NCBI GenBank assembly: GCA_963799775.1
Contig: CAWCYD010000002.1
Location: 192,001-256,000 of the forward strand
Length of the DNA: 64,000 bases
Direction: 5' to 3'
DNA from: an uncultured archaeon
Lineage (GTDB): Archaea; Thermoproteota; Nitrososphaeria; Nitrososphaerales; Gagatemarchaeaceae
Under the pieces are notes generated by a model that was not told the origin of the DNA, did not search any database, and saw only the letters and a list, made by a program, of their open reading frames with translations. Both the position numbers and the translations under genes were made by a program. Below, piece after piece: positions 1,995 to 22,195 of this stretch. Numbering within the stretch: position 1 is the stretch's first letter; each line of letters begins with the position of its first letter.

Positions 1995-2131
1995 GGATCG
2001 CCTCATCTGGACCAACCCCACAGACCGAGGAGGTCACGGACTCTCGGTCGCCTTGCATTCTGGCGGCGGTTGCTGACCTTGCCTGATTCGGGCTAGAGCG
2101 GGGGAACCGCGCACAATCTGAGGAGTGTAGG

Positions 2132-2501: not shown

Positions 2502-3426
2502 ATGCAAAAACTGCCCCGCGGAGGCCGCGAACAAAAGAAATGCCGTCGGCCGTCGGCCGTTGGAGCGCCTCTCGTGATCGCGGTCGTAGTGGCAATCCTG
2601 GCAATTACATTCTCCGGCAACGACTCGGTAACTTCTTCCTCTTCATCGACGGGATTGGGCTCCTTGAATTATTCTTCTTGCCTGATAGTCATCTACAACG
2701 GAACGATTACGGGTGACTCCACTAACGTCGCATTTCCTAATGGGACTCAGAATGAACCTGCCCATCACATCTTGTCAACGGTTCGTCCATCCGAGCGAGT
2801 ACGCGATGGTCATGACCATCGCACAGAATCCCGCGTTCGTCACCGCGGAAGACGGCTCGCTGTACGCATACGTCGGGACAGGCGGTTTCGGTTACAGCGA
2901 AGTCAACGGAACGGTGACCTGCTCTAGCGTGCTCCCAGATCCATCGGGCAGGGGCTACGTGACACAGGGTTGCTTCGTGACCACCGATGCCTTGTTCGAC
3001 CTGTTCAGCCCCACGGAGACCGTTTCGGGCTGCGGCATCACAGAGCCAAAGAACCTGGGAGAAATAGACGTGGCAATCCCTGTCAATGCGACAGGCGGCC
3101 TCAATCTGTCAAATCTCAGCGTCAGCAAGGTGCCCAGCGACGAACTGAATATCTTCACCTGCACGGTCCAGTCCACCTTCAGCCCCACCGTCTCCCTCAC
3201 CAACTCAACCACCACAATCACGACTGCGCTTAACGTCACCTCAGTCCTCAGCTCAACCAGTCTCCAGGCCGGCCAAGCTAGCGCTCAACCGCAAACCGAT
3301 GGCAGGTCGAACCCAGGGTTTCTTCCGGCTCTGGGGACCATCGTTGTAGCAGCAAGTGTAGTGGCGCTGGCCGTGATCTACTCGTTGCGTTCCCGAAAGC
3401 TTCACAGCTGGCTATTGAGGAGATAG
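2502..3426 (+). CDS. secreted/membrane-anchored Ser/Thr-rich protein (frameshift near 2740)
   Basis: Basic plus hydrophobic N-terminus in ORF 2502, C-terminal TM helix in ORF 2713..3426; the stop TAG is the first 3 nt of the att repeat. Confidence 0.6.
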
Positions 3427-3461
3427 CCCGTCCAGGGGCTGCACCTGTTTAGGGGCTTTTA
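3424..3461 (-). repeat. att-like tRNA(Gln-type) 3'-end copy #1
   Basis: TAGCCCGTCCAGG-ggctgca-cctgtttaggggctttta; reverse complement CCTGGACGGGCTA is a T-stem 3' strand + acceptor 3' strand + discriminator. Confidence 0.85.
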
Positions 3462-3481
3462 GGGGGGAATTTGGCGCCCCT

Positions 3482-3904
3482 TCAGGCCAGCTTGACTGGG
3501 TCGATGGATTCGAGCCAATCGACCTTCTTCAGCGCTTCGTCGTGAGTCATTATCCTCTTCTCGCCAGCGTCGTCCATCATGGCCAAGAGCGTTGCGTCCC
3601 TGCCCCCAATGCCCAAGTGTGAGTACTTCTTCAGCATCTCTATTGCGCCGAGAGCGTGCCCGTAATCAAAGTCCGTTATGACCAGCGGGAATCGAAGGAA
3701 CTCGTCCAACTTCTCTCCGCCTATCGGAGCTCCTAGGCTCTTGACGAGGAAGTGGGCTAATTCCATCACGATTATTGTGTTTATCGCTATCTGCTCTGAC
3801 TTTAGGGCCTTCTCCACAGGCCCGACGACCGATTGATGCTCCGAACAGTCACTGTCAAAGTAGTAGGCCCAGATGTTCGTGTCAATGGTGATTATGGCCG
3901 ACAC
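3482..3904 (-). CDS. vapC: VapC-like PIN-domain toxin
   Basis: IDTNIWAY...E...GRDATL...THD PIN motifs. Confidence 0.85.
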   Translation of the reverse strand: MSAIITIDTNIWAYYFDSDCSEHQSVVGPVEKALKSEQIAINTIIVMELAHFLVKSLGAPIGGEKLDEFLRFPLVITDFDYGHALGAIEMLKKYSHLGIGGRDATLLAMMDDAGEKRIMTHDEALKKVDWLESIDPVKLA

Positions 3905-4133
3905 CCCAGATGTTCTTGAGGTCGACAGGCTTGATCTTCGAGCCGTGCACGCAGCCTCTCAGCTCTGAAATGAATTCGTCCGCACTTACCTCCGGCGAAA
4001 GCAGCAGATCCTTCCCTTTCTTGGATATTCTGAGTTTCTGTTCCGGTCTTAGTTTGAGTTCTGACCTTATCTCGTTCGGAATCACTATCCTTCCTCGCTC
4101 GTCTATGACTGCCTCGCCCATGAAAATTCCCAT
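3882..4133 (-). CDS. AbrB/SpoVT-family antitoxin
   Basis: IDERGRIVIPNEIRSELKL; overlaps vapC. Confidence 0.85.
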   Translation of the reverse strand: MGIFMGEAVIDERGRIVIPNEIRSELKLRPEQKLRISKKGKDLLLSPEVSADEFISELRGCVHGSKIKPVDLKNIWGVGHNHH

Positions 4134-4165
4134 CCCATTTATTTTCCCGCTAGTACATAAACCTG

Positions 4166-4203
4166 TAGCCCGTTTCGGGGCTGCACCTGTTTAGGGGCTT
4201 TTA
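4166..4203 (-). repeat. att-like tRNA(Gln-type) 3'-end copy #2 (degenerate core)
   Basis: TAGCCCGTttcGG-ggctgca-cctgtttaggggctttta; spacer and arm identical to copy #1. Confidence 0.8.
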
Positions 4204-4265
4204 CGCGGGAATCTTGCAGTCTTCGGCCGATGGCGTGCCCGGCAGGACTCGGGCTACGGTATTTT

Positions 4266-4340
4266 GAAATAACTAGTTCCAAAATGGAAATAACTAGTTC
4301 ACAAATTCCTTTGACAGCGGACTCCGTGCCCGAATATCAT
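4266..4340 (+). promoter_or_regulatory. tandem operator (GAAATAACTAGTTC x2) and sigma70-like promoter upstream of the SDR gene
   Basis: 14-bp direct repeats at 4266 and 4287, each containing the palindrome AACTAGTT; TTGACA (4311)-N18-TATCAT (4335). Confidence 0.5.
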
Positions 4341-4382
4341 ACTAAACAGTTAATAATCATGCAAAGCAACCCTAACCTCGCA

Positions 4383-5141
4383 ATGACAACTCACATGGAA
4401 CGGTACCAAGGCAAGAAAGTGGTGATCACCGGCGGCACCAGCGGCAGCGGGCTCGCCACGGCAAAGATGCTCCTCGACGAGGGTGCGCGTGTTCTGGTGA
4501 CGGGGCGGTCGCACGCTGGCCTGGAATCGGCGCAGAAAGAGATTGGAAAGGACGCCCTCGTGGTTTCTAGCGACGCGCGCTCATTGACGGACATCGACGC
4601 CCTCGCTTCTCGGGTGAAGGCCGAGTTCGGCACCTTCGACCTGCTCTTCGCCAACGCCGGATTTGCCCTCTTTGCCCCTCTCGAAAACACGACCGAGGCC
4701 ATGTACGACGAGATGTTCGATCTGAACGCCAAAGGACCGTTTTTCGCGGTGCAGAAGCTCGCGCCGCTAATCAACCGGGGGGGCGCTGTCGTCCTCACGA
4801 CCTCCGTCGCAAACGTCAAGGGAAGTCCCAACCAAGCGCCCTACGCAGCGTCCAAGGCCGCGCTGCGCTCATTTGCTCGCGTGCTCGCCGCTGAGCTTCT
4901 GCCCCGGGAGATTCGCGTCAATGCGGTAACGCCCGGTCCCATCGACACGCCGATCATCGGCAAAGTGTTTCCCGAGAAAGGCGCGGCCGCCCATGTCAGG
5001 GAGCGGACGATCAGTACTAATCCGATGAAGCGCTTTGGGATGCCGGAGGAAATTGCGAAGGCCGTCCTCTTCCTCGCATTCGACGCGACCTTCACCACCG
5101 GTGCCGAACTTCCGGTCGATGGCGGTTGGTCGCAACTCTGA
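4383..5141 (+). CDS. short-chain dehydrogenase/reductase
   Basis: TGGTSGSG, NAG, YAASK and VDGG motifs. Confidence 0.9.
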   Translation: MTTHMERYQGKKVVITGGTSGSGLATAKMLLDEGARVLVTGRSHAGLESAQKEIGKDALVVSSDARSLTDIDALASRVKAEFGTFDLLFANAGFALFAPLENTTEAMYDEMFDLNAKGPFFAVQKLAPLINRGGAVVLTTSVANVKGSPNQAPYAASKAALRSFARVLAAELLPREIRVNAVTPGPIDTPIIGKVFPEKGAAAHVRERTISTNPMKRFGMPEEIAKAVLFLAFDATFTTGAELPVDGGWSQL

Positions 5142-5415
5142 AAGCAGTACGCGAAATGCATCGAAACTTAATGTAATGAGCCAAGTGCGTTGACGGGCAC
5201 CGGTGAGTCACCCCTCAACGAACTCGGCAATCTTGTAGGTCTTCGGGCGCTTTGCGCCGTCCGATGACGGGTGCGATCGAATGTTCCATGGAGTCTCCGT
5301 GGCGAACAGTGAAGGTCGAGTCGTGAGGCCCCGCGAGGCCAGGGTCGGCTTGCTAATTACGGACCATTCGGTTATATATTGGTGCGATGGCAATTGTCCA
5401 AGAGTTTTAAATTAA

Positions 5416-6048
5416 ATGTCTCAAAATGACGCCAGGCCGCGTGGGCGGCCGCGCAGCTTCGACGAGAGGTTCGCGCTGGAAAAGGCGACCCAGGTATTCT
5501 GGTCGAAGGGCTACGATGGAGTGACGATCGACGATCTCGTCGCCGGGATGGGCGTGGGACGGCCGAGCCTGTATTCCGTCTTCGGAGACAAGCGGACGTT
5601 GTTCTTGCGCGTCCTTCGGGCGTACGCAGAGACGAAAGGCGCCCTCGCTGCGAAGGCACTGCTCTCGCCGCGCACTCTTCGCGACTCGCTCGCCGCCTTC
5701 CTGAGGCAGGCTGTAGAATATGCGACCCAGGAAGGATCCGCTCGGGGATGTCTTCTAGAGTGCGTCGCGCCGCTTGTGAACGATGCTGAGGTCCGGCAGT
5801 TCCTACAGAACGCGGCCGCTCACGCCGTAGGACTAGTGGAAGGTCGTTTCCGGGACGCGGTCAGCGCGGGCGAAATCCCGTCCGACTTTCCGGTGGCCAT
5901 CCGCGCAACCCAGCTCGTTGATTTTGCTCGTGGCCTTACCATGCGTGCGCTGATAGGCACGCCGCGCAAGACGCTTCTCAGGGATGCCGAGGAAGCGGCC
6001 GACTTGGTGCTCCTGCCGCGGCGGGGAAATGCGGCGCCAGAACGTTGA
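5416..6048 (+). CDS. TetR/AcrR-family regulator
   Basis: RGRPRSFD...FWSKGYDGVTIDDL...RPSLYSVFGDK. Confidence 0.9.
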   Translation: MSQNDARPRGRPRSFDERFALEKATQVFWSKGYDGVTIDDLVAGMGVGRPSLYSVFGDKRTLFLRVLRAYAETKGALAAKALLSPRTLRDSLAAFLRQAVEYATQEGSARGCLLECVAPLVNDAEVRQFLQNAAAHAVGLVEGRFRDAVSAGEIPSDFPVAIRATQLVDFARGLTMRALIGTPRKTLLRDAEEAADLVLLPRRGNAAPER

Positions 6049-6375
6049 TGCCGGCTGGGTGGCTATCGCTCGCAGGGTGGGAGGCCCCTTCAGCCGCAAC
6101 GTATTATTATGCAGACACTACGCGGGCACCAACCGCCGCCGCGGACGGCCCACCTCTTTCGCAGTGCAGGTCCACCCGGACGGACGTGGTGGCGGCGCAA
6201 GTTTGTGATCCAGGTCCGCGGAACAACGCCCAGTAGCTGGCTCGCGGGGTCCGCCCTCGACGGCGCTGCGTGCGCGTCGTCCAAACAGCCGAATCGTGAT
6301 GTGGTCGGAATTAAAGCTTTTTACGAAGCATTAGCTTAAATCGTGGCGTATTAGGCAAACAGAGGCTAAAATAGG

Positions 6376-6416
6376 TAGCCCGTCCAGGATTCCAAGCCTG
6401 TAGTTCGATTTGTCCC
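6376..6416 (-). repeat. att-like tRNA(Gln-type) 3'-end copy #3
   Basis: TAGCCCGTCCAGG-attccaag-cctgtagttcgatttgtccc. Confidence 0.85.
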
Positions 6417-6427
6417 GGGTCTGTTTG

Positions 6428-6886
6428 CTAGCCGTCGCCGATTAAGCGGGAAACCTCCTTCTGAAATCTTTCGAGGAGGCTGTTCAGAGTCAGTAGTTCG
6501 TCCCTTGTAAACGTCACAAAAGCTTTCCCAACCATGTCTGCTTTCTTTATCGCGACCCTCTGGTACAGGGCCCTGCCCTCGGAGGTGATTTCGATGATGG
6601 TCGCTCTTCTGTCTCCCATGCCGGGCATCCTCCTGACCAGGCTCTTCTCCTCGAGCCTGTCCATTATGCCCGTGACATTGGCAGGAGTGACCAGCATCTC
6701 ATCGCTCATCTTCCTCATTAGCATGGGTCCGTTCCTTACGAGCAGGGAGAGCGCCAGGAACTGAGAATCCGATATCCCTTCGTGGGCGAACAATTTCAGG
6801 CCAGCGTGCCTCATCGCCTTGGATGTCGCTATGATGGCGTTGTAAGCCTCCTGATCTACTTCGGCTGTTCTCGCTCGCGCCGGCAT
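6428..6886 (-). CDS. MarR-family regulator (copy A)
   Basis: SQFLAL...PANVTGIMDRLEEKSLVRR...DRRA. Confidence 0.9.
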   Translation of the reverse strand: MPARARTAEVDQEAYNAIIATSKAMRHAGLKLFAHEGISDSQFLALSLLVRNGPMLMRKMSDEMLVTPANVTGIMDRLEEKSLVRRMPGMGDRRATIIEITSEGRALYQRVAIKKADMVGKAFVTFTRDELLTLNSLLERFQKEVSRLIGDG

Positions 6887-7001
6887 GGTCTGCCCGGCGC
6901 TTGTTTTAGATATAAATAGTTAGGCTATCGCTGGTTAAGACATATACGGTTGTAGTACCGATAGTCAAGACATAAATAGTTAAGGCCTTAACGGTTCTGC
7001 C

Positions 7002-7987
7002 ATGGAGAACCAGCACAAAGACGAGATGCGTGCCGTAGCGATAGACAGTTTCGGCGGTCCTGAGGCTCTTTCGGTTAGAAACGTCCCCGTGCCGGAAGTC
7101 GGGCCAAATCAAATCCTTGTCCAGGTCGAATCCGCAGGAATAGGTGTGTGGGATGTTGCAGAACGAGAGGGAATGCTTGTGAGAATGCTCGGAATCCAGC
7201 CCAAGTTCCCATGGGTGCTTGGCTCGGAGGGTGCGGGCAAGGTCGTAGCGGTCGGGGAGAAGGTCACCGGGTTCAGGAAGGGAGACCTGGTTTACGGCCA
7301 TGTGTGGGGGACAAATCCAAAGGCAGGATTCTACGCTGAATATACGGCCCTAAACGCGGACCAGGCGTGTCCGATTCCTTCCACGATACCAATCGAACAG
7401 GCAGGGGCCCTGCTCATCGATGGAGGAACCGCGCTGCGAGGGCTTGGTGACAATCTGGCCCTGAAGCAAGACGAAAAGCTGATGGTCTTTGGTGCGAGCG
7501 GAGGAATGGGGCATTTGGCAATCCAACTTGGCAAGCGACTCGGGGCTCGAGTGTTTGCCATAGCCTCGGGTGAAGACGGTGTAGCTCTCGCCCGACGGTT
7601 GGGAGCTGATGTTGCAGTAGACGGGCATAATGGGAAAACATAGAGGCTTCAGCCCGCGAGTTTGCCCCGAATGGTTTCGATGCGGCCTTGGTTACAGTTG
7701 GTGGCGAAGCCCCTGAAAAGGCGCTCACCGCTATGCGTGAAGGAGGACGGGTCGCATATCCCTGGGTCAATCAGCGTCCTGCTCCAAAGGCGCCGTCGAC
7801 CGTTCGCCTATTTGGCTACAATGGGAACCCAGATCGAGCGTTGGTGATCAAGCTCAACAAACTAATCGAGTCCGGCGCGTTCGAGGTGCATCTTGGCGGG
7901 ACCTTCACGCTTGATCAGGCAGTCGATGCCTACCATGCAGTAGGCTCACACCATCTGGGCAGGTTAGCTCTGCTCCCAACAAGATAG
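7002..7987 (+). CDS. NADPH:quinone oxidoreductase, MDR superfamily (copy A; frameshift near 7635)
   Basis: FGGPEAL, GSEGAG, GASGGMG; C-terminus in ORF 7688..7987; paralog of 16163..17182. Confidence 0.85.
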
Positions 7988-8049
7988 TCAAGCGACAATC
8001 AATCATATCAGGATTCTCGGGCTGAGCATTCAGGGCTATTGAATTGGAA

Positions 8050-8074
8050 TAGCCCGTCCAGGATTCGTACCTAG
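8050..8074 (-). repeat. att-like tRNA(Gln-type) 3'-end copy #4
   Basis: TAGCCCGTCCAGG-attcgta-cctag. Confidence 0.85.
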
Positions 8075-8528
8075 AAACTCTCGGGGAGTGCTGCTTCGAC
8101 GCTGCGAGAAACTGGTCACTCTACGACCAAGGCTACCGAACCACCACAATCTTGGTCGATGTTGAAAGCTAAACGGCACATTGCGACCCGAATCCTCCTT
8201 AGGATGGAATCGGATAGAACATTCTCTCCAACCTGTTAAGAGCATCCGGGCGCAGCATTTCCTTGCCAAAGGGGAGAATGAGGGAGAATGCGAATCCAGC
8301 AGTCGGTCACAACTCCTTGCGCCATGTGCTTGCTCATATCGCAGTTGAATGAGGTCTCCGAGAGTGACAAACAGGTTTACCAGCGTCACCTTTGGAGAGA
8401 GCACGGGATCCAGCCGTATTTCATTCCGAGGTAGCCGACCAAGACTCGGCCGGCAAAGGCTGGCACAGGTGCCTACGACAGGCCAGGCTTGCTACTAGTC
8501 GTGGAGGCTTTGCCCCGATGAGTCGTTC

Positions 8529-8972
8529 CTACTTGGGGATAGCCATCGACTGCCAGACGCGATACACCTTGTCCGCTACGTCCACGTTGGGCGTGACTCG
8601 GACCTTTAGATTCTCGGACTCGAGGTCAATCCTGACTTCGCTGAAAGCGCCCCTGTAGATCGAGTACCTCTTTCCGATCGGAGTCAGCACTATCCTCTCC
8701 ACCACGACGACCCCTTGGTCGACGAGCTCGTGGACCCTCCTGTAGGCGGTGCTTATTGGGATGTGGTTCTCTGAGCTTATCGCCTCTATGGTCTTCCCCT
8801 CCAGTATTGTCGAGGTCATGATCTTCCGGGAGAACTTGTCGGACATCGCCTCTAGGATGGCTTGAGCCACCTCGGGAATCGCTACGTCTCGGCACTCCAG
8901 AATGTGTTGCTGCCGTTGCTCCAGCGCGTACCTTCGCATCGCTGTCGGCTCCGCCACCGTTGCTGCTTGCAT
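8529..8972 (-). CDS. winged-HTH (ArsR-like) regulator
   Basis: ILEAMSDKFSRKI...IPISTAYRRVHEL. Confidence 0.8.
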   Translation of the reverse strand: MQAATVAEPTAMRRYALEQRQQHILECRDVAIPEVAQAILEAMSDKFSRKIMTSTILEGKTIEAISSENHIPISTAYRRVHELVDQGVVVVERIVLTPIGKRYSIYRGAFSEVRIDLESENLKVRVTPNVDVADKVYRVWQSMAIPK

Positions 8973-9076
8973 GGCAATGCATGGGTTGCGAGAGGGTATC
9001 TCGATTAGCCCTAGCCGGCTAGGGATGGGCGACGCAGACGGACATATCGCCCCTCATAGGTCTCCACAGGCGGAGC

Positions 9077-9739
9077 CTACGAGCCGCTTCCTGCCTGGGA
9101 AGCGGCCTGGGATTCGAGGAAGCTTCCGAGGATCTTCTTCTCCGCCCTCCTGAGGATCTCGTTCAAGGTGCTCGACCTTATGCCGAGCTTTGCGGCGAGC
9201 TCATCCTGAGTGATGCGCCTGGGGAAGTCGTAGAGGCCCAGCTCCATCGCGGACTTTAGCACACTGAACTGCCGGGTCGTCAGGTTGATGTCTTCGGTGA
9301 CTTGGGATATCTCGGTCACCTTGTAGCCGATCCCGCCGCTCGAGAGCCTGTTGAGCAGGGCGGGGACTCCATCGATGTTCAGGAACAGCTTGTAGCCAAC
9401 CAAGCAATCCTCCGAGGTCGCCGCGGAGGAGATGAAGGACGCGAGGTTCGACTCTATCAGGGACTTGCACACCCTGCATCCGCTGCTCATCACGACGCCC
9501 ATGAGATGCCCCCTCGCCAGCTCGGTCAACTCCACGCTCTTTACGTCGCTAGAGTTGCTCAGCCATTTCCTGGCCTGCTCGACGGAGTCCTCGTTCTTTA
9601 TGGAGATGTCAACGAAGTGGGCGATTTGATGGCCCCTGTCCAGCGATTTCAATCCAAGGATCTTGACATGGGCTGAGAACTCCTCGCACAGCCCCGTGGT
9701 CCACCGGTCCGAGCCGGCGACGAAGCGGAGCTGCATCAT
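9077..9739 (-). CDS. bacterio-opsin-activator-type C-terminal HTH regulator
   Basis: LTTRQ..VLKSAMELGLYDFPRRITQDELAAKLGI..STLNEILRRAEKK. Confidence 0.85.
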   Translation of the reverse strand: MMQLRFVAGSDRWTTGLCEEFSAHVKILGLKSLDRGHQIAHFVDISIKNEDSVEQARKWLSNSSDVKSVELTELARGHLMGVVMSSGCRVCKSLIESNLASFISSAATSEDCLVGYKLFLNIDGVPALLNRLSSGGIGYKVTEISQVTEDINLTTRQFSVLKSAMELGLYDFPRRITQDELAAKLGIRSSTLNEILRRAEKKILGSFLESQAASQAGSGS

Positions 9740-9851
9740 CCAACCCCTTCGCCGCGATTCGGAATATATTAGGAATTCTCACGACTTTCGGGGTTCGTTC
9801 GTGTAATCCCAAACAAGGCATAACTACCTCCGGTGGTCTACTCATGTTCGG

Positions 9852-10706
9852 TTGAAGATCAGGGACGCGCTTCCCCGCATATTTCAAAAGGCCTACCCTG
9901 CGATAGACCCCAAGACAGAGATCCTTCCAGCGATGTCGCTCTTGCGGTTCCACGAGATCGACGCTCTCCCTCTCGCCTTCGAGCCGGGTTCGAGCCGGAC
10001 GAAGGACAGGCAGAAGGCCGTCTACGGCTTCTCGAGCCTGGCCAGGCTGATGCTGCTGAAACCCAAAGACATCGCGTCCTTCCTAAAGAAGCCCTGCGAG
10101 GTCGCCTCGGAACCGATCGCCTCTGTTAGCGCCGACCGCGACATGTCGAGCCTCTTGGACACCTACGCCAGGACTCGATTCGGCTTCGCTCGGGTAGAGG
10201 ACAAGAAGAAGGTCGGAGCGCTGGCTGGCCTGACGGACCTTCTCGAGCTGTATGAGACGGGCGGGCTCGCAACGGAGCTCAACGCCGTCGATGTCGGGAC
10301 GCCCATCGTGTCAGTGAAGGCCGACACCCCTCTCAGGAACGCTCTCCAGATGATGTTCGAGAAAAGACACAGGAGGATCTTCATCTCGGGCGGCAGAGAA
10401 TTCGTCTCGGACCGGACGATAATCGATCACATATTCAGTCCAGGCATCCTGAGCGCGATGGCGAACAGGGGGGACGACGTCCTGAATATCCCGGTGTCCT
10501 CGGTCGGGATGCTATCCGCTAAAGAGGTCGAAGAAGACACGCCTCTCGCAGACGCGGCCAAGGAACTGAGGGCGCAGCACGCCGGACAGTGCCTCGTGTT
10601 CGATGGCCACGTTGTGACGCCTTGGGACATCGTCATGAAGCCCTGGAATCAGGGTGCGCTGAAGCTCGCAAGCGCATCCGACTCGCGACGATCCAAGCGG
10701 AATTAG
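9852..10706 (+). CDS. CBS-domain protein
   Basis: Repeated CBS-like units (VSVKADTPLRNALQMM..RHRRI; VTPWDIV). Confidence 0.75.
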   Translation: MKIRDALPRIFQKAYPAIDPKTEILPAMSLLRFHEIDALPLAFEPGSSRTKDRQKAVYGFSSLARLMLLKPKDIASFLKKPCEVASEPIASVSADRDMSSLLDTYARTRFGFARVEDKKKVGALAGLTDLLELYETGGLATELNAVDVGTPIVSVKADTPLRNALQMMFEKRHRRIFISGGREFVSDRTIIDHIFSPGILSAMANRGDDVLNIPVSSVGMLSAKEVEEDTPLADAAKELRAQHAGQCLVFDGHVVTPWDIVMKPWNQGALKLASASDSRRSKRN

Positions 10707-11022
10707 TGCACGAGCCGGTCCTCTGAGGAGAGATTCTTTCGCCAAGGGCGAATCTAATCGAGCATCACAACAAAAGGCCGAGAAGGAAGAAGCACAACGC
10801 CTGCCAGGGCTGACCACACGAAGCTCTGCTTGTCGAGCTTGTTCCATCCGAATACGACCGGTTTGAGTCTGGAGAAGACCATCCATTCTGCGAACGCCGA
10901 GACCCCGAAGATCAAGAGCATGGTGTGCGAATGCGCGATGCCAACTTCAGAAGGGTCAGCCTCCGCGCGAGGGTGCTCGAATGTATATATCGCATCTTGC
11001 AAACCATTAGGGCCAACTAGTT

Positions 11023-11946
11023 TTGATTGAGACCGAGAACCTCACGAGGAAGTTCGGTGACCTGACAGCGGTCGATGCTGTGACCTTCCGCGTGGAGGAA
11101 GGAGAGGTCTTCGGCTTCCTCGGACCGAACGGAGCAGGGAAGACGACCACGATCCGGATGCTCTGCTGCCTGATATCGAAGACCAGCGGGAAAGCCAGCA
11201 TCGGGGACTACGATGTAGGCAAAGATTCGGACGCGCTAAAGATAAGGAAGCTCATCGGACTGGTCCCTGACAACGTAGGACTCTACGACGATCTGAGCGC
11301 CTACGACAACCTGGATTTCTACGGGAAGCTCTACGATTGCACGGAAGCGCAGAGGAAGGAGAACATCCAACGCTTCCTCACCATGCTGGGGCTCTGGGAG
11401 AAGAAGGACGTCGCGGTAGGAACCTTCTCGAAAGGCATGAAGCAGAAGCTCGGGATCGCGTGCGCTCTCGTGCACGACCCAAAAGTGCTCTTCATGGACG
11501 AGCCCACCGCGAACCTCGACCCCGAGTCGGCGAAGACCGTCAGGGACTTCATCCTGGACTTGAAGAAGGAGAAAAGGACCATCTTCCTGAACACCCATAA
11601 CCTCGACGAAGCGCAGAAGATTTGCGACAAGATCGCGATCCTAAACACGAAGCTGATGGCGATCGGCACCCCAGAGGAGTTAGAGCGCTCGGCAAGCGGG
11701 AGGACGACCGTCGTCCAGCTGGTGCAGGTGAGCGACGCGATCCTTGCCGCTCTCAGGAAGCTGCCGGTCAGAAACATGGTGGTCGAAGGCAACAAACTGA
11801 CGTTCGACGTCATGGACCCGGAAAAGGAGAACGTCGCCATCGTGGACGCGATATACGGCGCCGGCGGCCACGTCCAAACGGTCACGGTCGTGGGCTCGAC
11901 CTTGGAGGAGGCCTACCTCAAGCTAGTGAGGCTCGACGAAAAATGA
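11023..11946 (+). CDS. ABC transporter ATP-binding protein
   Basis: GPNGAGKT Walker A, FSKGMKQK signature, LFMDEPT Walker B. Confidence 0.95.
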   Translation: MIETENLTRKFGDLTAVDAVTFRVEEGEVFGFLGPNGAGKTTTIRMLCCLISKTSGKASIGDYDVGKDSDALKIRKLIGLVPDNVGLYDDLSAYDNLDFYGKLYDCTEAQRKENIQRFLTMLGLWEKKDVAVGTFSKGMKQKLGIACALVHDPKVLFMDEPTANLDPESAKTVRDFILDLKKEKRTIFLNTHNLDEAQKICDKIAILNTKLMAIGTPEELERSASGRTTVVQLVQVSDAILAALRKLPVRNMVVEGNKLTFDVMDPEKENVAIVDAIYGAGGHVQTVTVVGSTLEEAYLKLVRLDEK

Positions 11947-12688
11947 GACTCTCGAAATCGTGGATTATCGCGTCGAAGGATTTCAGGGTGTTCACGAAGA
12001 AGAAGAACATACTCTACTCGATCATCGTCCTCCCTCTCATGGTCTCGTGCCTTCTTCCGGGTGTGGTGGCGTACGCAGGGCACAAGAATGGCGCGAGCGG
12101 AATCTCAGCGGCGGAACTCACTGTCCTCCTCCCCTCATTCACTTTCTTGTACCTCGTCATCGCTGGCGTTATCCCAAGCACCATCGCCTCCTACACCATA
12201 GTGGGCGAGAAGGTCGAGAAGAGCCTCGAGCGTCTCCTTGCCACGCCTACTACCGATGGCGAGATCTTGCTCGGGAAGGGGATTGCGGCCTTCCTGCCGC
12301 CGATTGCGTCCATCTTGGGGGAGCTACGATCTTCATGGTCCTCATGGACCTGGTGACACGTGGAACGCTCGGGTACGACTTCTTCCCCAACTGGAACGCG
12401 GCCATCGTCCTCTTCGTTATGGTCCCGTTCGCGGTGATCATGAGCGTGGAATGGAACGTCGTCGTCTCTTCGAGGGTGAGCGATGTGCGGGCCGCACAAC
12501 AAATCGGAGCGCTCATTGTGCTCCCCCTCGGGGGCATCTACCTCACGGGCGAGCTCAACTTGGTCTCGCTCGGCAACACCAGCAACCTCCTCATCATCGC
12601 CGGCGTCCTTCTGGCCCTTGACTTGATTCTCCTCTACGTCGCCAAGGCCACGTTCCGCAGGGAGGAGATACTGACAAAATGGAAGTAG
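11943..12688 (+). CDS. ABC-2-type permease (frameshift near 12320)
   Basis: IVGEKVEKSLERLLATP...EILLGK; multiple TM helices across two frames. Confidence 0.85.
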
Positions 12689-12701
12689 TGGGCCAAAGGG
12701 T

Positions 12702-12899
12702 GTGGAAAACACGAATGGTATGAGACTAAGATTGCTGCTAATGGGTTGCATCATCTCGGCCATAGGCGCAATCCTGCTCGCTTCGGGGGGCTTCGCGACA
12801 GATTTCATCGGGTTCCTCGCGGTCGGGACAGTGTTGCTTGTGCTTGGGATACTCTGGAGGTCGCAGAAGCCAGATGGCGTCCGAAGCACGCCGGCATGA
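12702..12899 (+). CDS. small two-helix membrane protein
   Basis: Two hydrophobic helices, directly after the permease. Confidence 0.5.
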   Translation: MENTNGMRLRLLLMGCIISAIGAILLASGGFATDFIGFLAVGTVLLVLGILWRSQKPDGVRSTPA

Positions 12900-13127
12900 T
12901 GGGACTCACCCGCAAGTCTCTTGGCGGTTGATTCGGTCGCGCGGTTCCCGCTTGGGGTCGAGTTGGTAGGCTTCTACTCGGGCCGGAACCAGGTTCGAAC
13001 CCAATCTCCACGAGTCTGCGGCTAGATGTGCCTCGCGGCAAGTATCTCATTTCAGTAATGTTTAGAGCCCATTTACCATCTGAAAGCGTGAATCATGCTA
13101 ATTTTGCTAGACAGAGGCTGAAATAGG

Positions 13128-13152
13128 TAGCCCGTCCAGGGGCTGCACCTGA
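13128..13152 (-). repeat. att-like tRNA(Gln-type) 3'-end copy #5
   Basis: TAGCCCGTCCAGG-ggctgca-cctga; left flank acagaggctgaaatagg is shared with copy #3. Confidence 0.85.
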
Positions 13153-13169
13153 CTAGGTGCGAATCCGTT

Positions 13170-13291
13170 CTACGTCGGCCGTAGGCCTTCCTCCTGTATC
13201 TGATTCTCATGACAAGCACGTCCCCGGCAGCCAGGGCGTAGGTAATCCGGTAGCCGCCGATCTTAATCTTGTAGACGCTTACGCAGGACAA
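13170..13291 (-). pseudogene. C-terminal fragment of a RelE/ParE toxin
   Basis: VYKIKIGGYRITY...VMRIRYRRKAY; N-terminal half absent. Confidence 0.55.
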
Positions 13292-13311
13292 CGGGTTCTG
13301 GTAGTCGTGGG

Positions 13312-14900
13312 CTAGGCCCCGTTGACTGTGTCCGAAGCAGCGCTAGAGGTCGCGCCGTTGTCGGCGTCACCAGCGAACGAAGCTAGGATGTCCACGCTAC
13401 CCTCGGCCCTTCCCCTCACTGTGACGGCGCAGGTCGGACCTGATGGGCCGCAGGTAGATGATGAGAAGGCGCTCCCGGTGCCTCCGAACTGCGGCCATGT
13501 CATCATCTCGCCCGATATCGAACCGCAGCTGTCCGATACGGCCGCGGTGAAGGTCGTGCCGCCTGCGGCACGGGGGAAGAGGTGCCGCCCTGCGTGGTCG
13601 TTGTGGTAGTGGTAGGCGGAGTTATCGCCAGGCCCTTGGTGACGTTGCTCGAGGAGAAGTCCGACGTGTCCGGGCCGTAGGTCGCCGTGACAGCGGCACT
13701 GCCAGACGTAACCCCAATCACTGTAACAGAGCATGAACCATTCAAGAGGGTGCAGGTGCTGGGGGAGAAAGCGACTCTGCCCGTGTCAGCGGAGACAGCG
13801 GACCAGGTCACAGAACCGCTTGGCGTCTGGCCCCCGTCTGCGACAGTCGCGGTGCAGGTCATGCTACCTCCCATTGTGATGGCGTAGGTTGGACAGCTGA
13901 ACGAGGTCGTGGTGGGAATCGAAGTCACTGTGAGCGTGAGCGTCCCTGAGCTGCCATCATTGCTAGAATCCGCCGGATAGGACGCTTGGATGACGGGGTT
14001 GCCCACGCCCGTACCGGCCACTGTGACGGAGCAGCTCATGCCTGAAAGGTTGCAAGTGGAGGAAGAGAATGAGGCGCTCCCGTTTCCTCCGGACTGGGAC
14101 CATGTTATCGTCTCGCCCGATATCGAGCCATAACTTCCCGAGACGGTCCCCGTACACGATGTTGTGGCGTAGGCTTTGACCGAGTCAGCTGTGCACGATA
14201 CCGTTGTCGTGGTGGAGGCAGGGGATATCGAGAGCGACTCGGTGCCGTAGCTGGAGGACGAGTCAGACGTTGCAGGTCCATAGGTGGCCATCATGGTAGC
14301 GTTCCCGCTGCCGACGGCGAGGCCCATCACCGTCACCGAGCAGGAACCGGCAGAAAGAGTGCAGTTGCTCGGCGAGAAGGACACCATGCCTGTCCCTGGG
14401 GGAACCGCGGACCACGTCACGGAACCGGCAGGCGTCTGGCCCCCGTCCGCCACTGTTGCAGAGCAAGTGGCGGTCGAACCCACGGCGACCTTGTCGGGAC
14501 TGCAGCTCACAGTCGTGGTGGTCGCGGCTGCCGTCGTTGTGGTGCTGCTCGAAGACGATGTGCTGGTACTAGTCGTGGTCGAGCCGGTAGCTGTGGTGGT
14601 TCCCGCTGAGGTGGCAGTCGACGTCGTCGATGGGATTGTGGAGCTGGTCGAGGTCGTCGATGCGGCCGTCGAGCTCGTCGACGTGGTAGTTGAGCTGGTG
14701 GCTGAGCTCAATATTGTGGAGCTGGGGGACGTCGTCGTAGTCGAGGTGAAGGAGGATGTCGCAGTCGATGTCACGGTCGTAGTGCTGGGAGGCCCGGAGA
14801 TGAGTGATGCGACGCCTACTCCTACCGTCACCAATACTACGATCATCACGGAGATGACGGGAACGGTTGTGATGGCTGCCGACCGGCGGCTATTTCTTAC
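13312..14900 (-). CDS. Ser/Thr-rich surface protein with Ig-like repeats (frameshift near 13570)
   Basis: N-terminal hydrophobic helix, S/T linker, repeated TTTTVSC...CxATV...GSVTWS...CTL..GSCSVTV units. Confidence 0.7.
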
Positions 14901-15375
14901 GTTTCTCGAGTCTCTCGGATACTCCTGAATAGACCAGCAGCATTACGAACAATACCCCCAGAATCGCCGCGGCTAACAGATCTGAACCAGCGGCAGAATT
15001 GTTGTCGAACGAGTAGATCACATAGGCGGCGAAACAAGCCAGGGCGGTGAGCCCGGTGAAGTAGATGTTCTCACGGTCCATCGATCCATAGAGTTCCACG
15101 GACTCTGGTAATCGGAGCTTGTTCTTCGTCAAGAGGATGTAGTAAAGCACCTGCATTACCGTCAGGAAGAGCAAGATTGTCGCCCCGGTCTCAGTTTCAT
15201 CGATCATCTCCGAGCCTGCGTTGGAGAGGATGGAGCCGAGTAGAACGACCAAGGTGGCGCAAAATGAGAATATTGCGACCAGCGCGTTATCGTGAGCCAG
15301 ATTCTTCCTGAATTTCCCCTCTATCCTAACGATAGACTGCTCGTTTTCAGCCTGCATCTCATCTGCGGGCTTCAT
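14890..15375 (-). CDS. membrane protein
   Basis: Four TM helices. Confidence 0.6.
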   Translation of the reverse strand: MKPADEMQAENEQSIVRIEGKFRKNLAHDNALVAIFSFCATLVVLLGSILSNAGSEMIDETETGATILLFLTVMQVLYYILLTKNKLRLPESVELYGSMDRENIYFTGLTALACFAAYVIYSFDNNSAAGSDLLAAAILGVLFVMLLVYSGVSERLEKRKK

Positions 15376-15478
15376 CAGGGCGACACATGGCGGACTTTTG
15401 ATTTATGAGATTTAAGGGATATGTTTTGGATTTTGGTTCCAGGTGACGTAGAATTCGTCGATGATGTAATCGAGGAGG

Positions 15479-15519
15479 TAGCCCGTCCAGGATTCGAGGC
15501 GCCTGGTTCGATTTGTCCC
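15479..15519 (-). repeat. att-like tRNA(Gln-type) 3'-end copy #6
   Basis: TAGCCCGTCCAGG-attcgaggcg-cctggttcgatttgtccc; arm shared with copy #3. Confidence 0.85.
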
Positions 15520-15589
15520 AGACCGACCGCCCATTCTTCTGCTTTCTTGCCTGAGCTTGGGAGAGTGCAGCGTCGGCATCGCCTGGTCG

Positions 15590-16057
15590 TTAGCTTTCGC
15601 CACTCGAGCGAGACGTTTCCCCTTGGAATCTTTCAAGCAGGCTGTGCAGGGTCATCAATTCGTCCTTTGTAAACGTCGCAAGTGCCTTTTGAAGCATCTC
15701 GGCCTTCTTTATGGCTACTCTCTCGTACAGGGACTTCCCGTCGGGGGTAATCTCAATGACCGTCGCTCTCCTGTCTCCTTTCCCCGGTGTTCTCCTGACT
15801 AGTCTCTTCTCTTCCAGTCGGTCCATTATGCCTGTGACATTGGCAGGAGTGACGAGCATCTCATCGCTCATCTTCCTCATTAGCATCGGTCCATTGTTCG
15901 CAAGAAGGACGAGCGCCAGAAACTGAGAGTCAGTTATTCCCTCGTCCGCGAACAGTTTCAGCCCGGCATGTCTTACCACCTTCGATGTCGCGATAATCGA
16001 GTTGTACGCCTTTTGCTCCACCTCGGCCCTTTCCATTCTTGTGGGCACAGGCAGCAT
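15590..16057 (-). CDS. MarR-family regulator (copy B)
   Basis: Close paralog of 6428..6886. Confidence 0.9.
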   Translation of the reverse strand: MLPVPTRMERAEVEQKAYNSIIATSKVVRHAGLKLFADEGITDSQFLALVLLANNGPMLMRKMSDEMLVTPANVTGIMDRLEEKRLVRRTPGKGDRRATVIEITPDGKSLYERVAIKKAEMLQKALATFTKDELMTLHSLLERFQGETSRSSGES

Positions 16058-16162
16058 GGGCTATTTTAGATATAAATAGTTAAGCCCTCTGTAGTCTGGA
16101 CATACACAGGCTAACTATTAATAGTCAAGCCTTAAATAGTTAAGGTGTTAATCATCACACCC

Positions 16163-17182
16163 ATGTCCGAGCAGCAAAAGCTGAAGCCAAAAGACGAGAT
16201 GCGTGCCGTAACGATAGACCGCTTCGGCGGTCCGGAGACGCTTTCGGTCAGAACCCTCCCTATGCCGAAACCTGGGCCGAATCAGGTCCTGATCCAGGTC
16301 GAATCAGCCGGCATCGGGATATGGGATCTCGCTGAATTGGGAGGAATGCTTGCTCAAAGAGCTGGAATCAAGCCCAGCTTCCCCTGGACGCTCGGCTCGG
16401 AAGGTGCGGGCAAGATCGTGGCAGTCGGACAGAAGGTCACGGGGTTTAGCAAGGGAGACCTAGTTTACGGCATTGTGTGGGGGACAAATCCAAAGGCGGG
16501 ATTCTACGCTGAATATACGGCCGTGAACGCGGACCAGGCGTGGCCGATTCCCTCGACAATAACGGCCCAAGAGGCGGGGGCGCTGCTCATTGCTGGAGGT
16601 ACCGTCCTGCGAGGGCTGGACGACAATCTGAATCTGAAGAAGGGCGAAACACTGTTGGTCTTCGGCGCGAGCGGCGGTTTGGGGCACTTGGCCATCCAAC
16701 TTGGCAAGCGCCTCGGGGCCAGGGTGTTCGCTATAGCCTCGGGGGAGGACGGCGTGGCTCTTGCCCGAAGGTTAGGAGCTGAGGCTGCTGTGGATGGACA
16801 TGGAGGAGACATTCGCGCTCCGGCCCGAGAGTTCGCCCCGGATGGTTTCGATGCGGCCTTGATAACGGTTCGAGGGCAGGCTGAAGGGGCGGTCGAGGCC
16901 GCTGAAAGCGCTCTCACCACATTGCGCGAAGGTGGACGTGTGGCATATCCCTGGACAGACAATTTCAGACCGCCCCCGAGAGTCCCCTCAAGCGTTCGTC
17001 TGCATGGCTACATGTTAGGGAACACCGATCGGGGTCTGGTCATCAAACTCAACAAACTGATCGAAGCCGGCGCGTTCGAGGTGCATCTTGGCAGGACGTT
17101 CACCCTCGAACGGGCAACTGATGCCTACCAAGCTCTAGGCTCACACCATCTGGGCAGGTTAGCTCTGGTCCCAACAAGATAG
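16163..17182 (+). CDS. NADPH:quinone oxidoreductase, MDR superfamily (copy B)
   Basis: Intact paralog of 7002..7987. Confidence 0.9.
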   Translation: MSEQQKLKPKDEMRAVTIDRFGGPETLSVRTLPMPKPGPNQVLIQVESAGIGIWDLAELGGMLAQRAGIKPSFPWTLGSEGAGKIVAVGQKVTGFSKGDLVYGIVWGTNPKAGFYAEYTAVNADQAWPIPSTITAQEAGALLIAGGTVLRGLDDNLNLKKGETLLVFGASGGLGHLAIQLGKRLGARVFAIASGEDGVALARRLGAEAAVDGHGGDIRAPAREFAPDGFDAALITVRGQAEGAVEAAESALTTLREGGRVAYPWTDNFRPPPRVPSSVRLHGYMLGNTDRGLVIKLNKLIEAGAFEVHLGRTFTLERATDAYQALGSHHLGRLALVPTR

Positions 17183-17246
17183 CCAGGCGACAACCAATCA
17201 CATCAGGATTCTCGGGCTAAGCATTACGAGGGCTATTGAATTGGAA

Positions 17247-17290
17247 TAGCCCGTCCAGGTATATAACGCAACGGTTTGAATCCGGATTCG
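17247..17290 (-). repeat. att-like tRNA(Gln-type) 3'-end copy #7
   Basis: TAGCCCGTCCAGG-tatataa-cgcaacggtttgaatccggattc; left flank shared with copy #4. Confidence 0.85.
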
Positions 17291-17364
17291 GTTCGATTCG
17301 TCCCTTCGACCGTGGGGCTCACGGAGAAGCCGCGACAAGCTTTAGGAATGCGTTGACAATTTGT

Positions 17365-17664
17365 TCATAGAGGTTCATTTTTCATGCGGCCGATACTCAT
17401 TCTGACCAAGCCTTGGCTGACGCTGAAGACGCGGTCCACTTTCGCCTTGCTGTCAACAATCAGTTTGCCCGTCTCCAACCCTTCGTTGGTGACCAACACG
17501 GCGTATTCTCGGTATCTCAGGTTAGAAGTCAAAGGAACAGCCACGAAGTCTTCCGAGCGGCGATTGTAGCTGTCGTTTGACAGGACTACAGCAGGTCGTA
17601 CCTTCGATGTCCGGAGATCGGAAAATGGAAACGAGAGAAGTACTATCTCGCGTTGTGTTACCAA
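17365..17664 (-). CDS. mazF: MazF/PemK-family toxin
   Basis: IVLLSFPFSDLRTSKVRPAVVLSN...VPLTS. Confidence 0.85.
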   Translation of the reverse strand: MVTQREIVLLSFPFSDLRTSKVRPAVVLSNDSYNRRSEDFVAVPLTSNLRYREYAVLVTNEGLETGKLIVDSKAKVDRVFSVSQGLVRMSIGRMKNEPL

Positions 17665-17665
17665 C

Positions 17666-17950
17666 TCAACGACGTCCCTTCAGATACTCGTCCCACACGT
17701 CCTCCCCTTTTTTGAGCCAAATCTTCTTCAGCGACTCTTCACCAAGGCCCTGTAGGTCCGCGAACTCACCTTCCAGGATTTCGTTGATTTTCTCGGGCTT
17801 CTCAAGGACTATCTTACGACCCTTTCTAATCAAGAGAAGTTCGTCGCCTCTTGATATGCCGATTTCCCTCTGGATATCAATCGGTATCGAGATTTGCCCC
17901 TTGTCGGAAACCTTGACCTTCTTGAAAGTCAATTCGTCGGCCTGGGTCAT
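17666..17950 (-). CDS. AbrB/MazE-family antitoxin
   Basis: VKVSDKGQISIPIDIQREIGISRGDEL. Confidence 0.85.
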   Translation of the reverse strand: MTQADELTFKKVKVSDKGQISIPIDIQREIGISRGDELLLIRKGRKIVLEKPEKINEILEGEFADLQGLGEESLKKIWLKKGEDVWDEYLKGRR

Positions 17951-18036
17951 GCTGTATTGAAGTAAGGAAATCCTTACATAAATAGCTTTGGAACATTCGC
18001 TCGCAAACGCCGACGGGGCGGGCTGAAAGTGTGTGA

Positions 18037-18070
18037 TAGCCCGTCCAGGATTCGAACATGAATGGGTTCT
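18037..18070 (-). repeat. att-like tRNA(Gln-type) 3'-end copy #8 (longest tRNA match; arm of the Lys-type family)
   Basis: TAGCCCGTCCAGGATTCGAAC is the reverse complement of GTTCGAATCCTGGACGGGCTA; followed by atgaatgggttct. Confidence 0.9.
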
Positions 18071-22130: not shown

Positions 22131-22195
22131 AGAGTGAGACTGCGCCGTCCCTAGGGGCCGGCCTCTGGCCTTCGCATTCCTCACCAGATTGCCAG

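Follow-up and report, generated by a model that had tools for sequence, protein, structure and literature searches.

Cassette region in the window

The DNA analyzed here, referred to as the window, is a stretch of 64,000 nucleotides (nt), positions C2:192001-256000 of contig C2 (CAWCYD010000002.1) in genome G000, an uncultured archaeon of the Gagatemarchaeaceae whose assembly consists of three contigs (2.47 Mb). All genomes in this study are metagenome-assembled bins, 54–96% complete. Between 3424 and 18057 the window carries a row of short attachment (att) sites, copies of the 3′ end of a tRNA-Gln gene, which delimit small groups of genes. The region is a stack of eight small cassettes, two of which are fused after loss of the site between them. 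Sites and cassettes are listed below with their open reading frames (ORFs); X1, X2 and Y denote types of conserved sequence (arms) that follow the 13-bp site core.

3424–3436, plus strand: att site 1; core corresponds to the tRNA-Gln 3′ end in reverse complement (tRNA sense on the minus strand); X1 cassette arm to ∼3480; TAG of the core is the stop codon of ORF 2713–3426
3437–4165, minus strand: cassette 1, VapBC-type toxin-antitoxin pair, PIN 3482–3904 and MazE/AbrB-like 3882–4133 (Pfam)
4166–4178, plus strand: att site 2, degenerate core TAGCCCGTTTCGG, then X1 arm
4179–6375, plus strand: cassette 2, SDR oxidoreductase 4230–5141 and TetR regulator 5416–6048 (Pfam)
6376–6388, plus strand: att site 3, Y-type arm ATTCCAAG...GTTCGATTTGTCCC
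6389–8049: cassette 3, MarR 6428–6886 on the minus strand; zinc-dependent alcohol dehydrogenase (Zn-ADH) in two ORFs, 7002–7643 and 7688–7987
8050–8062, plus strand: att site 4, right flank tRNA-like for 6 further nt
8063–10920: cassette 4, HTH_20 and HTH_10 regulators and a CBS-domain protein; distal site lost
10921–10960, plus strand: coreless X2-type arm remnant, marking where the ABC cassette formerly began (comparison with L049:1562 and C3:785608)
10961–13127, plus strand: cassette 5, ABC transporter, ATPase 11023–11946; 11960–12688 without Pfam match
13128–13140, plus strand: att site 5, X2 arm
13141–15478, minus strand: cassette 6, Ser/Thr-rich surface protein 13503–14849 with a weak Ig-like (Big_3_5) match; 161-aa membrane protein
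15479–15491, plus strand: att site 6, Y arm
15492–17246: cassette 7, MarR 15590–16057 on the minus strand; intact Zn-ADH 16145–17182
17247–17259, plus strand: att site 7, Y-like arm, altered directly after the core
17260–18036, minus strand: cassette 8, MazEF-type pair, PemK 17365–17664 and MazE 17666–17950
18037–18057, plus strand: att site 8, 21 nt of tRNA-Gln 3′ identity; remainder of the tRNA absent

Seven exact copies of the 13-mer TAGCCCGTCCAGG are present in the window, all of them on the plus strand (3424, 6376, 8050, 13128, 15479, 17247 and 18037), compared with zero matches in 100 dinucleotide-preserving shuffles of the window. The copy at 4166, with three mismatches, is not significant when taken alone (40 matches with up to three mismatches observed, 20.3 expected). 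It is considered real because the 47 nt from 4166 onward share 89% identity with 3424–3470 and the VapBC unit is closed by the same degenerate site in other genomes too. At 18037 the match runs on into ATTCGAAC, giving 21 nt of identity with tRNA-Gln that cover T-loop, T-stem, acceptor and discriminator.

Site-to-site spacings are 742, 2210, 1674, 5078, 2351, 1768 and 790 bp. Within the 5078-bp interval an X2-type arm without a core remains at ∼10921–10960, and the homology of other ABC cassettes begins at 10925–10939. Therefore, this interval is counted as two cassettes that have fused. A preliminary description of this DNA, made from the sequence alone, had reported the recurring 13-mer in one orientation together with these spacings and the gene content of the modules; positions, recomputed distances and Pfam results all bear it out, with seven exact copies and the degenerate one at 4166. 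Its seven modules were correct in boundaries and spacings, except that the 5078-bp module is really two. The statement that the sites are always intergenic holds for Pfam-supported genes but not for small mechanically called ORFs, which overlap several sites.

Cassettes 3 and 7 are paralogues with 77% nucleotide identity over their full length, arms included. Surface proteins are a main cargo class alongside toxin-antitoxin pairs. Many cassettes, in the window (2713–3426, 13503–14849) as well as in the arrays of relatives, code for proteins rich in Ser/Thr that have a signal-like segment at the N terminus and, at the C terminus, a hydrophobic anchor followed by a basic tail.

Structure of the sites

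For a wider comparison, 90 sites with at most one core mismatch were catalogued in 27 stretches of DNA; 11 belong to tRNA genes and 79 are cassette-side sites. Each site is built from a 13-bp core, a purine-rich left arm and a right arm that belongs to one of two or three conserved families. The core corresponds to the 3′ end of tRNA-Gln(CTG), comprising the discriminator, the 3′ strand of the acceptor stem and the 3′ strand of the T-stem. The consensus of the left arm is near AATGAGGAGA; this arm may serve as the tRNA 3′ trailer after insertion, which may be a cause of its conservation. Among the X-type right arms, 41 begin exactly with GGGCTG and ∼16 with variants of it. X1 arms continue as …CACCTGTTTAGGGGCTTTTAGG… and X2 arms form a short hairpin ending in CGAATCC. 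The Y-type arms, 20 in number, keep the T-loop ATTCGA and carry GGTTCGATTTGTCCC further along. These cassette arms are conserved across unrelated cargo.

X-type sites contain a palindrome in which TAGCCC is separated by the 6 bp GTCCAG from GGGCTG. At exactly this 6-bp spacer, at least five of six bases were complementary to TAGCCC in 40 of 78 cassette-side sites and in none of 12 tRNA-type sites; only two sites showed such complementarity at any other spacer from 2 to 12 (a cruder split was used for this count, 78 + 12, with one tRNA-like fragment grouped with the tRNA genes). The same layout was found in three of nine sites of a tRNA-Arg type (CGGGCC, 6 bp, GGCCCG) and in two sites of a tRNA-Lys type in stretch L026; only this recurrence over three site families carries covariation-like weight. 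Such an arrangement would probably match a simple recombinase core site in which exchange takes place within the 6 bp of the spacer.

A folded single-strand site of the attC kind was rejected after DNA folding of the core plus 45 nt, in which no marked single-strand structure was seen: z-scores ranged from −1.9 to +1.7 for 46 cassette-side or orphan sites and from −3.2 to +1.1 for seven tRNA genes.

Parent tRNA gene and genomic setting

The whole of G000 holds eight exact copies of the 13-mer, seven in the window and one at the 3′ end of an intron-containing tRNA-Gln(CTG) gene at C3:783577-783674. The 13-mer is thus not scattered over the genome, and a tRNA ending in it exists; the parentage in tRNA-Gln, put forward as a guess in the preliminary description, proved correct. 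The parent gene lies on C3, and neither in the window nor on the contig of the window. Its flanks are syntenic with the tRNA-Gln loci of G011, G018, G008, G017 and G022. It has a small array of its own, with degenerate sites at C3:785608 and C3:786167 and, between the tRNA and the first of these sites, a 76% paralogue of the ABC transporter cassette of the window (cassette 5).

Since the true tRNA-Gln locus of the genome is on C3, the array in the window is an orphan, ectopic array at a distance from the tRNA-Gln platform. Its origin probably lies either in the entry of cassettes into a stray tRNA-Gln fragment of 21 nt (flanked by …ATTGAGGAGA on the left and ATTCGAAC… on the right) or in a site-by-site exchange that translocated part of an array.

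The surroundings of the array are variable as well. In G011 and G022, the genes left of window position 2000, a conserved 160-nt piece (2126–2289) and the genes right of 45725 are only 8–12 kb apart, and 2290–45725 is therefore regarded as a hypervariable island. The other features of this island and its edges are as follows.

2130–2240, minus strand: probable intron-containing tRNA-Asp(GTC), read by eye; left edge of the variable island
19256–19268, plus strand: truncated tRNA-Arg-type core, just ahead of a 390-aa gene
22085–22096, plus strand: tRNA-Lys/Arg-type site GCGGGCCCGACG; further copies at 22796–22807 and 43270–43281
22868–24188, plus strand: tyrosine recombinase of a divergent family, frameshifted near 23841
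45724–46043, minus strand: tRNA-Lys(TTT) gene, extent from ARAGORN with introns allowed; right edge of the variable island

Neither ARAGORN nor Rfam at gathering thresholds found a tRNA in the window, Rfam reported no family of any kind at these thresholds, and tRNA-Lys(TTT) was obtained only when ARAGORN was run with introns allowed. The conserved 160-nt piece, on the minus strand, reads by eye as tRNA-Asp(GTC) with non-canonical introns and was called by neither program. Many tRNA genes of G000 carry introns in the ARAGORN intron mode.

Arrays in related genomes and in metagenomes

The exact 13-mer was present in nine of 23 genomes of the genus. It was clustered and in one orientation in G000, G017, G018, G008, G020 and G022, and also in G013 when sites with one mismatch were counted. 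Outside the genus, 79 of 80 other genomes of the order lacked it and the remaining one held a single copy. In the stretches retrieved, the rows end at a tRNA-Gln gene (L021, L023, L025, L028, L048, L049 and C3 of G000). The longest row, in G017, has at least 12 cassette-side sites over 20 kb, and a further, short row of this genome, in which the core variant is TAGCCCGGCCAGG, also adjoins a tRNA-Gln. Not counting the tRNA-Gln gene, four sites were found in G018, five in G008, four in G020 and two in G022; G013 has four sites in a retrieved stretch that ended before any tRNA. Around the tRNA-Gln gene of G011 there was no further site within 20 kb (∼10 kb per side), and this locus is therefore taken as an empty platform. 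Over the arrays of seven genomes, 42 site-to-site intervals measured 75–5078 bp, with a median of 1224.5 bp.

Metagenomes were scanned with the core plus part of one arm, which yielded 17 contigs, several with rows of three to seven sites; tRNA-Gln ends the row in four of the 17 (L311, L312, L313, L317). When a collection of genomes was scanned with a loose degenerate pattern, the matches listed were mostly chance matches in bacteria; among them were also L192, L211, L247 and L253, with one or two matches each, in records labelled archaeon or Nitrososphaerales archaeon.

Exchange of cassettes, with breakpoints in the core

In a DNA search of 40 related genomes, single cassettes gave separate matches that ended at sites. 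The VapBC unit (window 3416–4195) was recovered as a site-bounded unit in G018 (96% identity), at three places in G017 (93–94%), in G008 (90%) and in G013 (86%), and also in the metagenome contigs L318 and L313. It measures 0.74–0.79 kb, has exact boundaries and occupies differing positions in the arrays. The SDR and TetR unit (4166–6125) was found in G017 at 93–94%, with a copy in a tRNA-Gln array at L021:12226-14185 (93%). In the arrays of relatives these two units stand in other orders. The preliminary description had asked for such a comparison; it revealed cassettes at 86–96% identity that are reordered with breakpoints inside the 13-mer, and a shared order with breakpoints elsewhere was not seen.

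The breakpoints can be followed on both sides of the core, as the flank to its left moves with the left cassette and the flank to its right with the right cassette. The end of the VapBC unit is invariably …CATAAACCTG, and what comes next is an X1 arm in the window, a Y arm in G017, an X2 arm in G018 and a tRNA-like arm in the second row of G017; in front of the X1 arm of the unit itself, five different left flanks occur. A single site connects the ABC cassette directly to the MazEF cassette in L314 and L318; compared with these contigs, the window has two extra cassettes (13128–17247) exactly between the ABC and MazEF cores. This reassortment of flanks at 13 bp therefore fits site-specific exchange within the core, and not a dispersed repeat.

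The cassettes are far more similar between genomes than the genes around them. Cassettes and core genes are 93–94% and 72–75% identical, respectively, in the comparison with G017, 96% and 72–80% with G018, 90% and 71–74% with G008, and 86% and 69–77% with G013. In G022 the ABC cassette beside the tRNA reaches 90.6%, compared to 75.8% for the flank. As cassettes share 86–96% identity and flanking core genes 69–80%, it is concluded that exchange between species was recent.

Short contigs from four soil and peat metagenome runs contain joints such as 3452>10925, 3463>8047, 13166>18030 and 4138>3420, among others. These joints are ambiguous; lying at or near sites, they are consistent with cassette reshuffling among relatives. 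One metagenome contig is identical to the window across the junction at 6376 (6328–6603, no differences).

Similar rows at tRNA-Arg and tRNA-Lys genes

G000 was screened for repeated tRNA 3′ ends. A second row lies behind tRNA-Arg(TCG) at C3:1226610-1239724 (L301), with about nine sites sharing the core CGGGCCCGGCAGG. Its intervals measure 312–1406 bp apart from one of 6996 bp, and it gave no integrase match. A tRNA-Lys island occupies window 22085–45800, with GCGGGCCCGACG sites and the tRNA-Lys(TTT) gene on the minus strand near 45725; its first unit (22085–22796) is 711 bp long. The island also contains a direct repeat of ∼265 bp, 83% identical, at 24206–24468 and 28193–28458.

Cargo is shared between these rows and the tRNA-Gln-type arrays. 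The SDR and TetR genes are found with 94% identity between tRNA-Lys-type sites in L026 (9290–11220, a stretch of G017 contig C7). Since the same cargo is flanked by tRNA-Lys-type sites in L026 and by tRNA-Gln-type sites in the window, cargo can switch site family. For the 390-aa gene behind the truncated tRNA-Arg-type core (window 19267–20439), the tRNA-Arg row contains a copy at 96% identity, and L318 contains one at 88% in the form of a tRNA-Gln-type cassette.

Search for a recombinase

A Pfam search of 28 ORFs of the window detected no recombinase domain, in line with the earlier claim that no module encodes a recombinase. The 77 ORFs of seven arrays in six relatives contained PIN (seven) and MazE-like (four) domains, two each of SDR, ABC, Zn-ADH and MarR, a P-type ATPase and others; no recombinase occurred in the best 25 of the 62 Pfam families found. 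Four large ORFs of these arrays without Pfam match (436–577 aa) were rejected as recombinases, as they show signal and C-terminal anchor features and no recombinase similarity.

G000 has only nine tyrosine recombinase genes, located at C3:9052-9534, C2:20245-21537, C3:1384949-1385458, C3:121276-121776, C3:490561-491034, C3:1415568-1416881, C3:47923-48861, C3:1348013-1348969 and window 22868–24188. When their products were compared by tblastn with 28 array sequences, only the integrase of the window itself was matched. Members of PF00589 and of the family of this integrase were located in five array-bearing genomes, none of them inside an array, and the resolvase family PF00239 was absent from the five genomes searched. 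In the genomes, the 17 metagenome contigs and viral contigs, neither a recombinase beside a tRNA-Gln-type core nor an integrase fragment with such a core was found.

The preliminary description had named the integrase at 22868 as the enzyme to test. Its alignment with paralogues shows the R…K…(Y/H)xxR…H…Y pattern of tyrosine recombinases, with no score for Pfam (PF00589), and the family has a conserved C-terminal extension of ∼110 aa. The gene lies in two frames, as paralogues align to 22862–23842 and then to 23841–24188; the frameshift near 23841 could be a sequencing error, in a bin that was possibly assembled from long reads. It is located 4.8 kb from the array, and its neighbors are the copies of GCGGGCCCGACG at 22085, 22796 and 43270, a sequence that matches the 3′ end of the tRNA-Lys(TTT) gene near 45725 with one mismatch. 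Surrounded by tRNA-Lys-type copies, the integrase belongs to the neighboring tRNA-Lys island. Its paralogues are found directly after a tRNA-Met gene, a tRNA gene called Ala by ARAGORN and a fragment of that second tRNA. Frameshifted, set among tRNA-Lys-type sites and with paralogues at these tRNAs, it is a poor candidate for the array, and the earlier proposal is not upheld.

Other candidates were rejected as well. A 430-aa integrase (C2:20245-21537) is part of a 17.8-kb element in the 3′ end of glnA and hence unlinked to tRNA-Gln. This element (C2:20191-37980), in the glutamine synthetase gene, is bounded by a 20-bp direct repeat, and its integrase is 91–96% identical in G017, G016 and G018, far above the identity of core genes. 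The recognizable tRNA fragments at integrases of G008, G018, G017 and G022 are Met-like, Lys-like and one Ala or Ile (ARAGORN), and none is Gln. As for a helper virus or plasmid, scanning viral contigs for the core extended by one base brought up 126 loci, all without a matching arm and therefore regarded as chance matches. An integrase-family profile found no relative in the viral contigs.

Interpretation of the arrays

It is fairly probable that the units are non-autonomous cassettes which are moved in trans by a site-specific recombinase. Discrete cargo with one att site per unit, reordering and freedom from recombinase genes agree with the preliminary description, which had proposed cassettes of this kind stacked by a trans-acting integrase; no such integrase was identified. 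In the scheme that we infer, the recombinase would be encoded elsewhere and would most likely be of the tyrosine type. A circular cassette would recombine with the tRNA-Gln gene or with any resident site, the crossover taking place inside the 13-bp core with the 6-bp spacer GTCCAG as the likely exchange region. Insertion would regenerate the tRNA, the left arm of the cassette would become the new tRNA trailer, and repeated insertion, excision and exchange would give rise to the arrays behind tRNA-Gln.

Several points weigh against movement in trans. The genomes, metagenome contigs and viral contigs searched yielded no recombinase with specificity for the tRNA-Gln core; the census of the arrays of relatives extends to the best 25 of 62 families, and the gene may be missing from the bins because of their incompleteness. 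Among the assembled short contigs of the four soil and peat runs there was no circular junction or excision product. The array in the window has no tRNA-Gln gene next to it, and parts of it may be fossil, since the core at 4166 is degenerate, the core at ∼10920 is lost and one ADH is split into two ORFs. Finally, the palindrome counts are not independent, because copies within a family share descent.

These signs of decay, the degenerate core, the lost core and the split ADH, would also be expected from a fossil accretion array, in which the units are cis-mobilizable elements (CIMEs), decayed remnants of integrase-bearing elements that integrated serially in tRNA-Gln and are now immobile singly or move with a neighbor. 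Tandem re-use of tRNA sites by elements with tyrosine recombinases is known, integrase-less units included (PMC5704250; PMC3146451; PMC6563490), and G000 also has classical elements with an integrase next to a tRNA. However, no integrase gene or pseudogene was found in the arrays searched (seven genomes, 17 metagenome contigs), whereas Dehalococcoides has 16 islands with an integration module and 15 without (PMC3146451). The units are tiny (median 1.2 kb) and carry two or three arm families whatever the cargo, and the VapBC unit recurs with exact bounds at different positions at an identity far above that of core genes. A fossil array is therefore considered unlikely and, as far as tested, the region is not a simple pile of decayed integrase elements. 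Use of a host housekeeping recombinase is less likely still. Half-sites separated by 6 bp are used by Xer-type enzymes, and IMEX elements and pdif modules are Xer-dependent. About half of the cassette sites have this layout and no dedicated recombinase lies near any array, both of which speak for such a dependence. On the other hand, the core is a tRNA end and not dif-like, and PF00589 searches found no Xer-like gene in G008 and one such tyrosine recombinase in G018, both genomes being incomplete. Three half-sites coexist in one genome (TAGCCC, CGGGCC, GCGGGCC), a situation more readily explained by several specific enzymes than by a single enzyme of the host.

As short intergenic sequences derived from a tRNA, with arms of ∼45 conserved nt that could support homologous exchange, the repeats might be miniature inverted-repeat transposable elements (MITEs), elements resembling short interspersed nuclear elements (SINEs), or repeats shuffled by homology, rather than cassette boundaries. 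This is highly improbable. Elements of this kind would be dispersed, would occur in either orientation and would have terminal inverted repeats as well as target-site duplications; here the orientation is single, the seven non-tRNA copies of G000 stand in one row with no copy outside it except the tRNA gene, the copies in relatives occur only in rows ending at tRNA-Gln, and flanks reassort independently at the 13-mer. Homologous shuffling also meets the difficulty that a first insertion in the tRNA gene has just 13–19 bp of identity. That the array is a true integron, or a cluster of attC sites lacking integron-integrases (CALIN), with IntI and attC, can hardly be maintained: cassette sizes and a cargo rich in toxin-antitoxin genes (seven PIN and four MazE among the 77 ORFs of relatives, two pairs in the window) would fit, but intI is lacking, the place of attC is taken by tRNA ends and the folding gave no marked single-strand hairpin. 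An assembly artefact, with cassettes of different strains chained at the repeat, is just as remote. The genome is a metagenome bin and repeats of 60–100 nt can mislead short-read assemblers; yet the same architecture was recovered in seven independently assembled genomes and in metagenome contigs, and one contig of the soil and peat runs is identical to the window across the junction at 6376.

Returning to cassettes moved in trans, a broader form of this reading is put forward tentatively, as a possibility with the odds against it: a dedicated gene-capture system of the genus, perhaps of many archaea, with tRNA-Gln, tRNA-Arg and tRNA-Lys platforms, palindromic sites that mimic the acceptor stem (its 3′ strand, 6 bp and the complement of that strand), cargo that can be refitted with the site of a different tRNA, and one family of trans-acting recombinases, of swappable specificity or recognizing shape, encoded outside the arrays. 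If units are indeed moved in trans, they would represent a second, independently evolved route to integron-like gene-collecting sites, in which the landing pad is a tRNA gene that, being essential, cannot be lost. This would explain much of the turnover of accessory genes (toxin-antitoxin pairs, regulator-oxidoreductase pairs, transporters and surface proteins) in a genus of soil and peat archaea. The material for experiments is at hand, with defined sites, a candidate 6-bp exchange region, empty and occupied platforms and nine candidate recombinase genes.

Comparison with known systems

The closest known cases come from bacteria, in which integrase-less, att-flanked units stacked at tRNA or tmRNA genes have been described as CIMEs and, in Dehalococcoides, as ssrA islands. 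A description of integrase-less mini-cassette arrays at archaeal tRNA genes was not found in the main texts of the literature searched. The ssrA islands of Dehalococcoides (McMurdie et al., 2011; PMC3146451) comprise 28 direct repeats, with 16 islands carrying a serine-recombinase module and 15, proposed to be cis-mobilizable, without it. As reported there, copies of a tRNA-like gene's 3′ end lie as direct repeats downstream of the gene, accessory islands are arranged in tandem and conserved sequence lies beside the repeat, all of which resembles the arrays described here. In contrast to those bacterial, multi-kb rdhA islands, the present arrays are archaeal, contain no unit with a recombinase, have a median spacing of 1.2 kb and have parallel arrays at other tRNAs.

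CIMEs, according to the review PMC5704250, are decay products of streptococcal integrative and conjugative or integrative and mobilizable elements that lie beside functional relatives. The units share with them attL and attR flanks, the lack of integration and transfer genes and their stacking, through site-specific recombination, at the 3′ end of a gene that serves as target. Unlike CIMEs as outlined in that review, they have arms that are conserved across unrelated cargo, and no relative combining this att site with an integrase came to light here.

Prochlorococcus tycheposons (bioRxiv 10.1101/2020.12.28.424599) are similar, as that preprint presents them, in the use of few target tRNA genes, in scattered partial tRNAs and in older elements being pushed inward. 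They have an integrase of their own, often replication genes, and average one or two per genome, whereas the cassettes carry neither integrase nor replication module and form arrays of at least 12 sites. The integrated elements of Thaumarchaeota (Krupovic et al., 2019; PMC6563490) occur in related hosts and have short att sites (median 17 bp), with 57% of integrations located in tRNA genes, and the paper also mentions arrays that result from repeated use of one site; they are complex multigene elements, and the accessible part of that paper describes no integrase-less mini-cassette arrays. Islander (PMC4383910), whose tandem arrays need an integrase for each island, is reported to have four arrays of at least three among 3919 islands. 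An intact tRNA gene with a displaced, direct 3′ fragment, as sought by that program, is present at C3 and in relatives, while the window has fragments only; none of the tandem units has an integrase of its own. Since an integrase is required in each island, programs of the Islander type would miss such arrays.

In function there is a parallel with integrons and CALINs. In archaeal integrons (Ghaly et al., 2022; PMC9668308), toxin-antitoxin systems make up 10.5% of annotated cassette proteins, and the word tRNA is absent from the main text of that paper. As described for integrons, small discrete cassettes with one site each, rich in toxin-antitoxin cargo, are reshuffled between arrays that often lack a recombinase and are exchanged between lineages. 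The differences are that IntI, an attI beside an integrase and a folded attC hairpin are missing, and that the core is a tRNA end and the platform a tRNA gene. Moreover, the cassettes hold their own regulators (TetR, MarR) in both orientations, which argues against reading from a common promoter such as Pc. Of the integron-like platform on tRNA-derived sites that had been suggested in the preliminary description, the analogy in function is retained and the likeness in enzyme and site is not. Judged by this analogy, the arrays are integron-like in function and are not integrons.

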